Assembly (NCBI RefSeq): GCF_048403405.1
Contig: NZ_CP183129.1
Strand: one strand, 5' to 3'
DNA from: Escherichia coli
GTDB lineage: Bacteria; Pseudomonadota; Gammaproteobacteria; Enterobacterales; Enterobacteriaceae
Length of the DNA stretch: 64,000 nucleotides
Below the pieces are notes generated by a model. That model made no database searches. It had not been told where the DNA came from and worked only from the letters and a program-made list of their open reading frames with translations. Within the stretch, counting starts at the first letter, position 1; the number at the start of each line of letters is the position of its first letter. Below are positions 1-4,742 of this stretch, in pieces. The translations under genes were made by a program, and so were the position numbers.

Positions 1-296
1 TTCACTGTATTGATGGCGGGTATGCGACGGAGTTATCCGCAGAGTTTGATACTCCGTGGGGGCCGCCGTCAGCAGCGGTTTTGTGTGCTCTGTCTGCGCG
101 TTTCCGCTGTCAGGTCCGTCATGTCTATGCCGAAGAAGGCTGTGGTTTCTGCGGATACAGCGAGTATGACCATGGCCGGTTAACCGACCATGAATCTGAT
201 GAGATTGAGTTCAGTGATGAAGAGAATGAGGACGGTTTCCAGGATGTGACGGGACCGGACTATATTCTTGATTCATTGCCACATTACGGAGGGTGA
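1..296 (+). CDS. 3' part of a hypothetical protein with a highly acidic C-terminus; the frame is open from the window edge (5'-truncated by the window)
   Basis: Frame 3 has no stop from nt 3 to TGA at 294-296; the six-frame track only reports it from an internal TTG at 81. No family recognised. Confidence 0.35.
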   Translation, partial: HCIDGGYATELSAEFDTPWGPPSAAVLCALSARFRCQVRHVYAEEGCGFCGYSEYDHGRLTDHESDEIEFSDEENEDGFQDVTGPDYILDSLPHYGG

Positions 297-326
297 GGTT
301 TCCGTACTGATTTAACTGACTGAAAA

Positions 327-357
327 CCCGGTAGTGATACCGGGTTTTTTTATTTTT
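327..357 (+). terminator. Rho-independent terminator (hairpin cccggta-gtga-taccggg followed by a T run)
   Basis: Perfect 7-bp stem with 4-nt loop, then TTTTTTTATTTTTTT; lies just downstream of the stop at 296. Confidence 0.7.
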
Positions 358-439
358 TTCGGAAAACTAATTTCGGCTTTTGTTTTATTCCCGCATTGTT
401 ATCGTGATGCCGTCATTGAATGAGATGGGGGAGAGTGTG

Positions 440-766
440 ATGAGATGTGAATTTGGGCAGGGTGTGAGGGAGTGGGCTCAGGATTTTTGGAATGAAATTC
501 TGTTTCCTTTTTTTGTCACAGCCGGACTTTTGTTGCCACTGATTCTGGTTGTGGGCGTTTTCCTGGTCTGGGATGAACAGCGCCAGGCTGAGTGGGGGCG
601 TTATTACCTGACGGAATGTCAGTTGGTGGAAAGAAACAGAAATGCGGGCTTCTGGTCAGGTCGGGAAAATATTCTGCAATGCGGAATGACCCGGGAGCAT
701 GTGAATGCGGACGCGTATGAAAAGGCCATCCGTGCCTGGCAGCAGAAACAGACAGAGACAGAATAA
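440..766 (+). CDS. Small hypothetical protein with one predicted transmembrane helix
   Basis: ORF 380-766; the ATG at 440 is preceded by GGGGGAGAG (Shine-Dalgarno-like). Hydrophobic stretch ILFPFFVTAGLLLPLILVVGVFLVW. Start choice is uncertain. Confidence 0.4.
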   Translation: MRCEFGQGVREWAQDFWNEILFPFFVTAGLLLPLILVVGVFLVWDEQRQAEWGRYYLTECQLVERNRNAGFWSGRENILQCGMTREHVNADAYEKAIRAWQQKQTETE

Positions 767-941
767 TAAAACATTATTCATGTAATCTTCTGTTTTGTTG
801 CCGGAATTATTTTTGTGGATGAGTTAACGTAATGAAAATAAGGTGCATTTATTATTTATTCTTATCCTGATATTAAAATAATTTATGTTTTATTTAATGT
901 TGCGTTGTTGTTTTTACCGAATTAAAGAGGCAGTAACACCG

Positions 942-2534
942 ATGTTACCGTGGTTTCGTAAATCGCTTTCCCGGAAAGCGGAAGAGAAAACATTGCGTGT
1001 TTCCCCGGGAAACACGCAGGAAAGGCCATTATTTATCCGTGACAGTGACGGCTTTTATTTACCGCAGGCAGCTGACGTATTGCTGACCACACCGCAGCGG
1101 CAAAACTGGTTACAGCAAATCAGCCGGGTGGTAGCGTTACCGGATAACCAGTACCGGGCACTTTGCCTGTCTCCTTTGCAGACGCTGGCAGAACGACTTC
1201 AGTGTGTGCCGGCATCAAAAACCGGGAAATATGCCGGCGAAGGGGGATTGCTGGATTTAACGCTGAATACGACAGCCTGGTGTATGCGGATGTCCCAGAA
1301 AGAGATGCTGCCCCGCGGGCTTCCGTCGGAAGAGCAGAGCCGTCAGTTCAGCGCCTGGAATGTGTGTGTTTTTTATACCGGACTGTTTTACTGGTTACCG
1401 TTAACGGCACAGTTTGAGGGACAACTGAACAGCCTGTCGGCGTGGCAGCCGGGGATGAGTGCGCCCACCGTACCGTATCGTTTTCGCTTTCATGAGCCGG
1501 TGCCGGATATGACGCATTTTCGCCGGACGACGGGGGCCATGATGGCTTTCCGGCTATTACCGGAGAAGGTAATCCACTGGTTGTCGGGTACACCAAAGGC
1601 GCTTCAGGCGTTGTCTGACGTGGTGACCGAGCCGGTAAACGGTGATAATGATTTACAGCGTGTGCTGAATGAGGCTCTGGCTGCGTTCCCCGCCGGTGCA
1701 TTGCCGGCATTTTCTTCCGTTGTTTCTATGTCAGCGCCTGATGCTTCGTCTTCAGTGCTATCAGGGCAGCCGGAGAATGATATCGCGTCATTGGCGCCTG
1801 CTGAATTGGCGCAAAAGCCACAACCTGAAACTCCGTCTGTAACATCTGTATTGCCTCCGGAGTCTGTTACTTCAGAAAAAACAGAGAACGGAATTCACTG
1901 CGATATACCGCTAATGGTAGTTGCAGAAGCAGAAGGTGCGGTTGTCCATGGGGCACTTGATTCTGCTGATGAAAAAACTGTCTCAGATATGTCTCCTCCG
2001 TTATCTGAGGATATGAAATATGCACTTGAATTATCAGGTTTAATGCCGGAAATCTTATCTGATACTCAGACGGGCAATCGTGATGAGAAGGATGAACAGC
2101 GCGAAAACTGTCTGAGTATAAAAAATGAAGGAGAGGCTTTCTGGGCGTGGTTTAAGTCCGGATTATTGGGCGGAAAACTGGCAATAAATACGCCGGATGC
2201 GAAGGTTCACTGTGTCATGGAGTATTTGTTTTGCCAGAGTCCGGCTGTTTTTTATCAGTACATACAGGAGGCGGGTAAAAATCCGGATGATATCGGCCAT
2301 ATTATTTCTTCTTTTGAATCCCTTAAATTGCACCGGATTATTCGTCATGATACCCGACAAACAGGGCATTTCAGGGCTCGAATTTATGGTGAAAAACTGA
2401 ATCCGCTGAGTGATAACAAAACATTAATTACGTTATCCCATAAAAAAATCAATGGTTACATGATTAAAGGACGTCAGATTTTTGGCATGAATATGCCGGA
2501 GGAATCATTGTTTATTCGTATTGTCGGAAGTTAA
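942..2534 (+). CDS. Hypothetical ~530-aa protein: N-terminal domain, Ser/Pro/acidic linker, Cys/His-rich C-terminal domain; function unknown
   Basis: Long ORF (track 885-2534); the ATG at 942 has AAAGAGG upstream. Ends 15 nt before the recombinase start, suggesting co-transcription. Confidence 0.6.
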   Translation: MLPWFRKSLSRKAEEKTLRVSPGNTQERPLFIRDSDGFYLPQAADVLLTTPQRQNWLQQISRVVALPDNQYRALCLSPLQTLAERLQCVPASKTGKYAGEGGLLDLTLNTTAWCMRMSQKEMLPRGLPSEEQSRQFSAWNVCVFYTGLFYWLPLTAQFEGQLNSLSAWQPGMSAPTVPYRFRFHEPVPDMTHFRRTTGAMMAFRLLPEKVIHWLSGTPKALQALSDVVTEPVNGDNDLQRVLNEALAAFPAGALPAFSSVVSMSAPDASSSVLSGQPENDIASLAPAELAQKPQPETPSVTSVLPPESVTSEKTENGIHCDIPLMVVAEAEGAVVHGALDSADEKTVSDMSPPLSEDMKYALELSGLMPEILSDTQTGNRDEKDEQRENCLSIKNEGEAFWAWFKSGLLGGKLAINTPDAKVHCVMEYLFCQSPAVFYQYIQEAGKNPDDIGHIISSFESLKLHRIIRHDTRQTGHFRARIYGEKLNPLSDNKTLITLSHKKINGYMIKGRQIFGMNMPEESLFIRIVGS

Positions 2535-2549
2535 AAGCAGGAGGTGTTT

Positions 2550-3620
2550 ATGAAAGATAATCACAGTTCTGATGAACATCAGCAGAAAGTGGATGTATGG
2601 GAGCAAATGCTGAGTAATTACTTTTACAATAAAGTATTACGGCCGGATACGGAGAAAACATACCGTAAGATGGTACGTCTTTTTCTGCGTTATTGCGGAG
2701 TTTGTGAAAATGCGTTACCGCTACCGGATGAAGTGACACATGAGCATGTGCTGAGATGGCGAAGAAATGAGCTGAATATTCAGAAAGTCCGGGAACGGAC
2801 ATGGAACACAAAAACCAGGCATATGCAGTCTCTGTATAATTATTGGATCAAAAAAGGGATTGTTTCACTTAAAGAAAACCCGTTCTCAGAAACACAAATT
2901 GAACCGGGTGAAAAACAGAAAAAAGTCTATACACAATCACAACTGAGAACGATTTATCGTATTCTGGAACAATTTCAGCAACAGGAAAATATGCTGCCAC
3001 CTGATCAGGCTCACTTTCAGGCATGTGCGGTTTATCCCACTCGATTCTGGTTTGCTGTGCTGGAAACGCTGAGGCTGACGGCTATTCGTTTTAACCAGCT
3101 GATTAACCTGCATATTGGCGATCTGGATTTTGAGGAGTGTACGATCACATTGCGCAGTGAAAGCAGTAAAAATCACCGGGAATATCAGATTGCTTTTGTT
3201 CAGCCACTACGTTGTTTACTGGCGCCCTTGGTTGAGGAAATGCGTTGTCACGGGGCGGATAAAAACGATATTTTGTTTGATGTTCATCGTCTTTATCATA
3301 AACGACTATCCCGCTCTGAAACTCCACTCAGTCAGACGATACGTTCTTTTTTCCGTCGTTTATCAAAGGAATGTGGATTTCATGTCAGTCCCCATCGTTT
3401 CAGACATACACTGGCGACGACATTAATGAAACATCCTGAACGTAATATGCAATTGACGAAACAGATGTTAGGACACCGTAGTCTCTCTTCAACTATGGAA
3501 TATATTGCTCTGGATGCATACAGTACAGTCAGGATCTTGGAGAATGAGTTAGGTGAGTTTTTAACAATGGGATTAGGTGGTGAACTTACAAGGCTAGCAT
3601 CAAAAAGACAGAGGATGTGA
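2550..3620 (+). CDS. Tyrosine site-specific recombinase (phage-integrase family, XerC/D/Cre-sized, 356 aa)
   Basis: C-terminal catalytic signature HRFRHTLATTL ... LGHRSLSSTMEYI (H-x-x-R and H...Y nucleophile), upstream Arg-containing box (ETLRLTAIRF). AGGAGG lies 5 nt before the ATG at 2550. Adjacent to the tRNA-Phe 3' end. Confidence 0.85.
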   Translation: MKDNHSSDEHQQKVDVWEQMLSNYFYNKVLRPDTEKTYRKMVRLFLRYCGVCENALPLPDEVTHEHVLRWRRNELNIQKVRERTWNTKTRHMQSLYNYWIKKGIVSLKENPFSETQIEPGEKQKKVYTQSQLRTIYRILEQFQQQENMLPPDQAHFQACAVYPTRFWFAVLETLRLTAIRFNQLINLHIGDLDFEECTITLRSESSKNHREYQIAFVQPLRCLLAPLVEEMRCHGADKNDILFDVHRLYHKRLSRSETPLSQTIRSFFRRLSKECGFHVSPHRFRHTLATTLMKHPERNMQLTKQMLGHRSLSSTMEYIALDAYSTVRILENELGEFLTMGLGGELTRLASKRQRM

Positions 3621-3637
3621 TATAAATAAAAAATATT

Positions 3638-3671
3638 TACACAAAGTTGACTATTTTATCAACTTTGTGTA
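3638..3671. repeat. Perfect 13-bp inverted repeat with 8-bp asymmetric spacer (TACACAAAGTTGA-ctatttta-TCAACTTTGTGTA)
   Basis: Read directly; begins 18 nt after the recombinase stop. No T tract follows. Confidence 0.8.
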
Positions 3672-3690
3672 TAAGCTGGATTTGATTGAG

Positions 3691-3715
3691 AAGGGTGTTC
3701 TAGGAAAACACCCTT
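3691..3715. repeat. 9-bp inverted repeat hairpin (AAGGGTGTT-ctaggaa-AACACCCTT)
   Basis: Read directly; lies between the recombinase gene and the tRNA. Confidence 0.6.
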
Positions 3716-3853
3716 ACTTGATAAATCATTGTCAACCACGTGAGAAGTCATGAACGTGATTACAACTGAAATTCAAGTTTTAACCGAGCGTTGGAGATCT
3801 CACTTCCAGCGACCGTGCTAGGGAAACGGTTACACCATTTCCGAAAGGAAAGA

Positions 3854-3929
3854 TGGTGCCCGGACTCGGAATCGAACCAAGGACACGGGGATTTTCAATC
3901 CCCTGCTCTACCGACTGAGCTATCCGGGC
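3854..3929 (-). tRNA. pheV: tRNA-Phe (GAA)
   Basis: Reverse complement matches the E. coli tRNA-Phe sequence over 76 nt including the CCA end; located next to yqgA as pheV is in K-12. Confidence 0.95.
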
Positions 3930-4034
3930 AACGGGGCGCATTAAACCTGATTCGCCTCGTCTCGTCAATCAAATTTCTTCAATTTAGTGCAGACTGCACA
4001 ATCTATCATCACTTTGCCGCTATTGCACGCATTG

Positions 4035-4742
4035 TCAGGCAAACCAGGCGGTCCAGGCGGCGGAAAGCGGCATTGCCAGAAGGAGTGCTGGAAGCATGTT
4101 GACCACCGGGAACATTTTAATGCCACAGATGCGTAATCCGGTTGCCAGCAGCAATAAACCGCCTACGGCGCTGAAGTCTGCCATCATCGACGGTGTGGTC
4201 AGCGGTAATATCAGCGCGGCAGCCCACGCCAGCGTTAACTGGATGATCAGTAATGGAATGCTAATCACCGACACCGCAATACCCAGCGAGCAGGCGAAGA
4301 TCATCGCCGTAAAGAAATCAAGAAATGACTTGGCGATTAAAATACTTGGATCGCCGGTCATCCCTTCGTTCATCGCCCCGAAGATTCCGGTGCCGCTGGC
4401 GCAAAACAGGACAATAATCGCGACAAAATTCTGAATAAAAGATTCATGCGCTGGCTTCTTACGCGAGTGGTGAAACAGATTATGCGCTTTGGCGACCACT
4501 GTATTGACGCCTTTTTCCAGCAGACAAATTTCGCCGATTAATGCTCCGAGTAAGGTTGCTAAAACCATCGCCGGAAGGTTGGCGCATTTCACCACCAGTA
4601 AAATACCAATCCCCAGCGATGCCAGACCAAAAATTGATGTCATGGAGACGCGGATACGTTCCGGTAAGCGTTGGCTAAGGAGTGCGCCGAAAACGCCACC
4701 CAGTAAGACTGCACTTGCGTTGATAAAAGGGCCGATGACCAC
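4035..4742 (-). CDS. yqgA: Inner-membrane protein YqgA (DUF554)
   Basis: 235-aa polytopic membrane ORF recognised as YqgA; conserved position between pheV and speC. Confidence 0.85.

Follow-up and report, generated by a model that had tools for sequence, protein, structure and literature searches.

A 64,000-nucleotide stretch of Escherichia coli DNA (contig NZ_CP183129.1, assembly GCF_048403405.1), referred to as the window, starts with the right end of an integrative and conjugative element (ICE) inserted at the tRNA-Phe gene pheV. Close to this end, immediately ahead of the gene of the ICE integrase, lies traI, which encodes a homologue of the MOBH family of conjugative relaxases. The gene is already known and annotated, since its product is identical to TraI of ICEPm1-type elements, and it is ordinary except for the loss of catalytic residues: the residues that perform cleavage in this family are gone, while the domain expected to hold them is under strong purifying selection. 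TraI is most probably the relaxosome and DNA-processing protein of the ICE. The features of the locus, numbered in the window, are:

925-930, plus strand: Shine-Dalgarno-like AAGAGG, 11 nucleotides before the traI ATG (direct sequence reading)
942-2534, plus strand: traI, 530-residue TraI_2/TraI_2_C protein, MOBH-family relaxase homologue of the motif-less clade (open reading frame, RefSeq, TIGR03760, Pfam)
1050-1682, plus strand: N-terminal TraI_2 domain (residues 37-247), HD-hydrolase fold with a degenerate active site
1707-2108, plus strand: disordered, acidic, Ser/Pro-rich linker (residues 256-389), predicted local distance difference test (pLDDT) below 50 over most of it
2007-2039, plus strand: conserved short helix in the linker (residues 356-366, EDMKYALELSG; clade alignment, AlphaFold2)
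2109-2531, plus strand: C-terminal TraI_2_C domain (residues 390-530), winged-helix-like
2539-2544, plus strand: AGGAGG Shine-Dalgarno sequence of int, inside the 15-nucleotide traI-int spacer (direct sequence reading)
2550-3620, plus strand: int, 356-residue XerC/XerD-like tyrosine recombinase that serves as integrase of the ICE and is co-transcribed with traI (open reading frame, NCBIfam Xer-type matches, RefSeq)
3638-3671, minus strand: 13-bp perfect inverted repeat with a T-run, terminator-like hairpin facing pheV (repeat and terminator scans)
3854-3929, minus strand: tRNA-Phe gene (pheV), the integration target (ARAGORN, Rfam)
3854-3904, minus strand: attR, a 51-nucleotide direct repeat formed by the 3' part of tRNA-Phe, with the attL copy 93.8 kb upstream in strain S12

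TraI and the element at pheV

The reading frame of traI opens with the ATG at 942 and closes with TAA at 2532-2534. A single long plus-strand open reading frame spans 885-2534, and an in-frame ATG at 885 would yield 549 residues; the 942-type 'ML.W' start is used by all homologues and also by RefSeq, where the entry WP_000938200.1 ('TraI domain-containing protein') has the same coordinates in identical E. coli DNA. An AlphaFold2 model built on a 124-sequence alignment shows two well-defined domains, residues 33-250 and 390-530, both with pLDDT above 90, separated by a disordered region of about residues 260-385. The N-terminal domain has the helical fold of the HD superfamily, as judged by structure comparison, and the winged-helix-like C-terminal domain superposes on PDB 2IPQ. 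The linker between them (14% Ser, 9% Pro, 19% Asp plus Glu, net charge -18) differs in length and sequence from homologue to homologue. In its middle, however, Asp 357, Tyr 360, Ala 361, Leu 362, Leu 364, Ser 365 and Gly 366 are nearly invariant in the clade, and AlphaFold2 places a helix at residues 356-364 within disordered, otherwise unconserved surroundings; this predicted helix may be a partner-binding motif. The C-terminal domain contains two cysteines, neither of which is conserved, and six histidines, of which only His 423 and His 464 are kept, so that it is not a Cys/His metal-binding domain. An earlier note on this DNA, made from the letters and open reading frames, had described a 530-residue frame at 942-2534 ending 15 nucleotides before the start of the recombinase, and two domains joined by a Ser/Pro/acidic linker. 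The frame agrees with the open reading frame call and the RefSeq coordinates, and the layout with the AlphaFold2 pLDDT profile and the residue composition. The Cys/His-rich C-terminal domain of the same note did not hold up, this part being TraI_2_C with its winged-helix-like fold and unconserved cysteines.

The island to which traI belongs is an ICEPm1-type ICE (SPI-7/PAPI-1/PFGI-1 superfamily) with an MPF_G type IV secretion system (T4SS). It is assigned to this type because its right end, window positions 1-3947, shares 99.9% of its nucleotides with the corresponding DNA of Proteus mirabilis ATCC 29906 and Providencia stuartii NCTC11800 (comparison loci L007 and L008). This cross-genus identity stops 18 nucleotides past the tRNA gene and points to recent transfer of the element between genera. 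In E. coli S12, whose DNA is 100% identical to window 1-4000, the element extends from an exact 51-nucleotide copy of the tRNA 3' end at 880,067-880,117 to the copy within pheV, a distance of about 93.8 kb. Left of the tRNA gene the window thus holds the right end of the element, and beyond about position 4,000 it consists of E. coli core chromosome (yqgA, speC, nupG etc.). The defining traits of an ICEPm1-type element are all present, namely the tRNA-Phe 3' end as target, repeats of about 51-52 nucleotides, a size of about 94 kb, an MPF_G T4SS, and taaP and nrp-like cargo, and the element matches the published description of ICEPm1 (PMC11278526) in pheV target, repeat length, size of about 94 kb and cargo. 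Its genes encode ParA, an SPI-7-type DnaB, ParB, STY4528/STY4534-family proteins and topoisomerase III. The conjugation genes comprise PilL2, the full TIGR037xx (MPF_G) set, TraD, TraG and a conjugative ATPase. Further genes form a siderophore-like non-ribosomal peptide synthetase/polyketide synthase (NRPS/PKS) cluster or encode the adhesin TaaP, ArdC, CbtA and DUF1281, followed by traI and int. The right end of the element is present in 23 of 5,426 complete E. coli genomes, and a scan of the genome collection with narrow peptide patterns returned seven loci.

Two further observations concern the island in strain S12. The ICE stands there in tandem with a second pheV island (P4-type integrase, pap and aerobactin genes), located directly beyond attL (L003 13570-15083, 878.6-880.1 kb). 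In addition, the same ICE carries a second tyrosine recombinase gene about 8 kb before traI (L001 12825-13733), and the 1-kb non-coding region before it (L001 11970-12436, upstream) contains three direct repeats of about 45 bp and a 14-bp perfect inverted repeat, the latter found again in a Pantoea plasmid (L022 3136-3175). A motif, CTACGGGTGA, common to the 45-bp repeats of the ICE and the region upstream of pUM505 mobH was discarded as lying within chance, 113 of 200 shuffles matching as well.

The genes traI and int, possibly together with a small open reading frame at 533-766, form one transcription unit, because a scan of the 15-nucleotide traI-int gap for terminator-like sites found none, and a strong plus-strand intrinsic terminator (12-bp stem and T-run, 322-349) closes the preceding DUF1281 gene. 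In relatives the spacing of the two genes ranges from 3 to 21 nucleotides, or they overlap by 4 nucleotides. The close operon linkage behind the words 'translationally coupled' in the earlier note is thus confirmed, whereas coupling by re-initiation in the strict sense is not established, since int has a strong ribosome-binding site of its own. The small frame at 533-766 encodes 77 residues, apparently with a transmembrane segment, and sits where relatives have a gene for a UvrD-like helicase directly upstream of traI (L018 2111-3607, L020 7470-8909, L021 7413-8918); in two of these three loci the end of the helicase gene overlaps the start of traI, and the gene is missing from the window.

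Downstream, the hairpin at 3638-3671 starts 18 nucleotides after the int stop and looks like a minus-strand intrinsic terminator that would stop read-through from pheV into the ICE. In Proteus and Xenorhabdus it recurs in the same place, the stem being preserved by compensatory changes (L016 7683-7716, L010 8074-8107, L013 6566-6599); it is absent from an E. coli 'type B' variant (L014). A protein-binding site or an oriT (origin of transfer) hairpin was considered for this repeat and rejected in view of the minus-strand T-run and the compensatory changes in the stem. An Rfam scan of positions 1-4200 found the tRNA alone.

The traI gene is a mosaic. The loci L014 (window 1687-3778) and L016 (window 2038-3348) are 88-96% nucleotide-identical to the window up to a breakpoint inside traI, which falls where the N-terminal domain ends in one relative and where the linker ends in the other; past it follow a divergent C-terminal domain (28% amino-acid identity) and a divergent integrase (54-55%). 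Both variants still target tRNA-Phe. Along these lines, the GC content falls from 0.54 to 0.40 across traI in the window, which fits recombination reaching from inside traI to the tRNA end.

Family membership and the catalytic residues

The assignment of TraI to the relaxases relies on several profiles. With TIGR03760, the integrating conjugative element relaxase of the PFGI-1 class, the protein reaches 184.5 bits, above the cut-off of 161.4, and residues 37-247 cover model positions 2-211 of 218. This match is accompanied by Pfam TraI_2 (PF07514; E 1e-22, residues 37-245) and TraI_2_C (E 6e-15, residues 396-484), and phmmer links the protein to canonical MobH proteins at about E 1e-23. The layout of TraI_2, disordered middle and TraI_2_C is that of the MOBH relaxases (PMC6736028). 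Proteus, Providencia and Xenorhabdus share the gene order traI-int-tRNA-Phe, and Pseudomonas pUM505 has a canonical mobH-int pair. The earlier note had thought of a relaxase-type accessory factor of an integrative element, to be sought with relaxase and HD-domain profiles. The relaxase type is supported by the positive Pfam and TIGRFAM searches and by the context, and the HD-domain comparison returned the fold of the superfamily without its motif. A match to an unrelated characterised family, or a lack of homologues in other integrative elements, had been named as counting against the suggestion; the family match is to relaxases, and homologues do occur in other integrative elements. As to the word 'accessory', the protein is a relaxase homologue, but it is the element's own and not an accessory of the integrase, because relatives sit on plasmids without an adjacent integrase. 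The ICEPm1 relaxase is given as essential for transfer by Heilers et al. (2019), who cite Flannery (2011); the gene mutated in that work would presumably be the counterpart of traI.

A number of points weigh against TraI as the DNA-processing protein of the ICE, and most of them concern the active site. In an alignment with the canonical MobH proteins of pUM505, an Aeromonas plasmid and a Vibrio plasmid, anchored on Gln 87, Pro 90, Gly 101-Gly 102, Asp 105, Leu 108, Trp 139 and Leu 148, the alternative 3H motif S-E-x-H-H-H is replaced by S-K-T-G-K-Y (residues 92-97), the histidine of 'DHGLE' by Leu 106, and the HD phosphohydrolase motif by Tyr 150-Trp 151. The late aspartate, Asp 267 of the gonococcal enzyme, has become Leu 246, and the equivalent of its Tyr 212 is Phe 183; no tyrosine is conserved across the motif-less clade. 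With the NCBIfam MobH equivalog model (NF041494) the protein reaches 92 bits, well short of the cut-off of 200, with model positions 6-217 of 340 covered, and Heilers et al. (2019) noted of the MOBH3 proteins, which lack the motifs, that they may 'have an alternative function'. The search for an oriT beside traI returned, in the intergenic region 767-941, weak AT-rich inverted repeats only. Finally, since int directly follows traI, a loss of transfer in a traI insertion mutant could be a polar effect on int.

The significance of these replacements derives from the work of Heilers et al. (2019; PMC6736028), in which the motifs proved essential for oriT cleavage, Asp 162 and Asp 267 were required for metal binding, and Tyr 212 was important for cleavage. 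A search of 1.84 billion representative proteins, with the 148 best hits aligned, revealed how far the loss extends: 45 of the 148 carry the invariant SEHHHH..E..HD..Y..D signature, 25 retain some of the scored motif residues, and 78 have none; the nearest cluster representatives, about 60 in number, all lack the full set. Column statistics showed that the scaffold residues common to both groups are strongly conserved, and that all 16 residues invariant only in the canonical enzymes are unconserved in the motif-less group. The ratio of non-synonymous to synonymous substitution rates (dN/dS) is 0.13-0.16 in the N-terminal domain, 0.23 in the C-terminal domain and 0.64 in the linker, and the copies from three genera agree at 100% of their residues. 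Judged by its motifs and structure, TraI fits the motif-less 'MOBH3' clade of Heilers et al. (2019, citing Garcillan-Barcia 2009), and its closest solved structures, PDB 3KQ5 and 2IPQ, are MOBH3 members.

Probable role in transfer and alternative explanations

With its identity, domain architecture and element context, the loss of the canonical catalytic residues and the purifying selection all observed directly, a role of TraI in the relaxosome is the most likely one. TraI is the only relaxase homologue annotated in a complete and evidently mobile MPF_G ICE, the annotated genes of the element of about 94 kb including no other relaxase, and it occupies the same backbone slot as pUM505 mobH, directly before int. 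The integrase would excise the ICE at the 51-nucleotide repeats, whereupon TraI would assemble on the oriT of the element, process or present the DNA strand, and deliver it to TraD, the coupling protein, and to the T4SS. The C-terminal domain and the linker helix probably recognise DNA or a partner, by analogy with the C-terminal MobI-binding domain of the MOBH12 TraI proteins, which sets oriT selectivity via a partner protein (bioRxiv 10.1101/2025.04.21.649884). That TraI cuts the DNA itself is given somewhat less than an even chance, because every residue needed for cleavage in the prototype is absent.

The combination of a conserved N-terminal domain with the disappearance of all known catalytic residues would also be accounted for if TraI were a catalytically dead adaptor that binds oriT or the coupling protein and leaves nicking to another ICE enzyme, an explanation that we consider rather unlikely. 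The backbone encodes a second tyrosine recombinase, of the Integrase_1 type (WP_004252296.1), which is the best candidate for such an enzyme and would be comparable to MpsA of SGI1 and TcpM of pCW3, tyrosine-recombinase relaxases that provide the precedent (PMC6414798). On inspection of its sequence, the catalytic residues of this Integrase_1/Phage_int_SAM_2 protein (R, K, HxxR, H and Y) appear to be all present. Of 23 enterobacterial plasmid records that carry a motif-less TraI, 21 also have a close homologue of this protein, as against none of about 30 records whose match is annotated as, or resembles, canonical MobH; this co-occurrence is, however, confounded by common descent, all being one enterobacterial backbone lineage. 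Moreover, such homologues are also found on many plasmids without TraI, including some of 4 kb, where multimer resolution is the simpler role. Upstream of the Integrase_1 gene, about 400 nucleotides of non-coding DNA show 68% conservation when the ICE is compared with a Pantoea plasmid. They include the inverted repeat GCGTCACTTT-N19-AAAGTGACGC, located at about 962,423-962,469 of NZ_CP107120.1, but this could be a promoter/operator or a resolution site, and the region could serve as resolution site, operator or origin of transfer. Nicking by any ICE protein is so far a proposal. The more specific proposal, that the 'relaxase' of ICEPm1 and SPI-7 is now a pseudo-enzyme whose HD fold binds oriT and the coupling protein while the Integrase_1-type recombinase nicks at the inverted repeat upstream of its own gene, is regarded as quite improbable; if true, it would constitute a two-protein relaxosome of MOBH scaffold and tyrosine recombinase, of a kind not yet described. 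As another alternative, TraI might cut with a chemistry that has nothing in common with HD or HUH sites.

Three further explanations depart more widely from TraI as the relaxosome protein. The position of traI in one operon with int, 15 nucleotides upstream of it, could suggest that TraI takes no part in conjugation and is an accessory of the integrase, for instance a factor for excision or directionality. The type of C-terminal domain co-varies with the integrase: between the window and L018 the two are 67% and 77% identical, and between the window and L014 or L016 they are 28% and 54-55% identical, with N-terminal domains that are 91-93% identical. This co-variation was rejected as proof of a functional TraI-Int pair, as simple linkage explains it: exchange of the segment between a point within traI and the conserved tRNA end replaces the C-terminal domain and int together. 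Furthermore, motif-less TraI homologues reside on MPF_G plasmids (Pantoea P4; also E. coli) without an integrase gene annotated beside traI, and the homology of TraI to conjugative relaxases spans the entire protein, so an accessory of the integrase seems very unlikely. It is still less probable that TraI is an active HD-type phosphohydrolase or nuclease, or that its C-terminal domain is a Cys/His metal-binding module. The N-terminal fold and the several histidines of the C-terminal domain would speak for these, but all metal ligands of the H...HD...D pattern are replaced by residues that cannot be counted as ligands, and the C-terminal domain, besides its unconserved cysteines and the mere two histidines kept, has as its structural relative 2IPQ, with no metal site described. 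Lastly, the lost motifs might mean that traI no longer has a function and is decaying from a formerly active relaxase gene. This may nearly be dismissed, as the dN/dS values of both domains are low, the frame is intact and the protein is the same in three genera with evident recent transfer between them, and the motif-less clade is large and deep with a conserved scaffold.

The relaxosome reading of TraI brings out a tension, in that MOBH relaxases are said to cut via an HD/3H two-metal site, whereas the ICEPm1 'relaxase', essential according to the citation mentioned above, lacks those residues. How nicking is achieved in a large ICE family whose only relaxase homologue is without the active site of its family is a question not raised in the literature found. 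The ICE moves virulence cargo, an adhesin and a siderophore-like NRPS/PKS cluster, among Proteus, Providencia and E. coli. Identification of the nicking protein would fill a gap in the understanding of how widespread pathogenicity-island ICEs move.

Comparison with known systems

The TraI proteins of the IncA/C plasmids and of SXT/R391 (MOBH12) resemble the protein discussed here in joining an HD-type TraI_2 N-terminal domain to a C-terminal specificity domain via disordered sequence, and swapping of that C-terminal domain changes oriT selectivity. Their C-terminal domain (MIBD) has, however, a different fold and binds MobI, of which no homologue is annotated in the present ICE. The prototype of MOBH2, TraI of the gonococcal genetic island, shares TraI_2, the disordered middle and TraI_2_C, and is likewise an island relaxase linked to a T4SS. 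Unlike the present protein it has 850 residues and an N-terminal amphipathic helix, and it requires Ser 103, Glu 104, His 106-108, His 161, Asp 162 and Asp 267 for Mn2+-dependent cleavage, with Tyr 212 being important, none of which has an equivalent here.

The MobH of the pUM505/pKLC102 type from Pseudomonas occupies the same backbone slot (TraG - DUF3742 - ... - mobH - int), and its N-terminal domain is about 30% identical to that of TraI. This MobH has the signature SEHHHH..E..HD..Y..D in full and is longer by about 110 residues, and mobH and int overlap by 4 nucleotides, compared with the 15-nucleotide spacer in the window. The Coxiella burnetii protein of PDB 3KQ5 and Salmonella Typhi STY4665 from SPI-7 (PDB 2IPQ) have the same two-domain architecture at low identity (12-31%), and both are devoid of the alternative 3H and HD motifs according to Heilers et al. 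(2019), just as TraI is.

The closest counterpart is TraI of ICEPm1, known from Proteus mirabilis, Providencia stuartii and Morganella morganii (Flannery et al. 2009, 2011). The host in the present case is E. coli, and the comparison covered the copies in P. mirabilis ATCC 29906 and P. stuartii NCTC11800. In both strains the TraI protein is 100% identical to that of the window; at the DNA level the agreement is 99.9% across 9 kb or more, and the elements have in common the pheV target, the repeats of about 51-52 nucleotides, the size of about 94 kb, taaP and the nrp-like NRPS/PKS genes.

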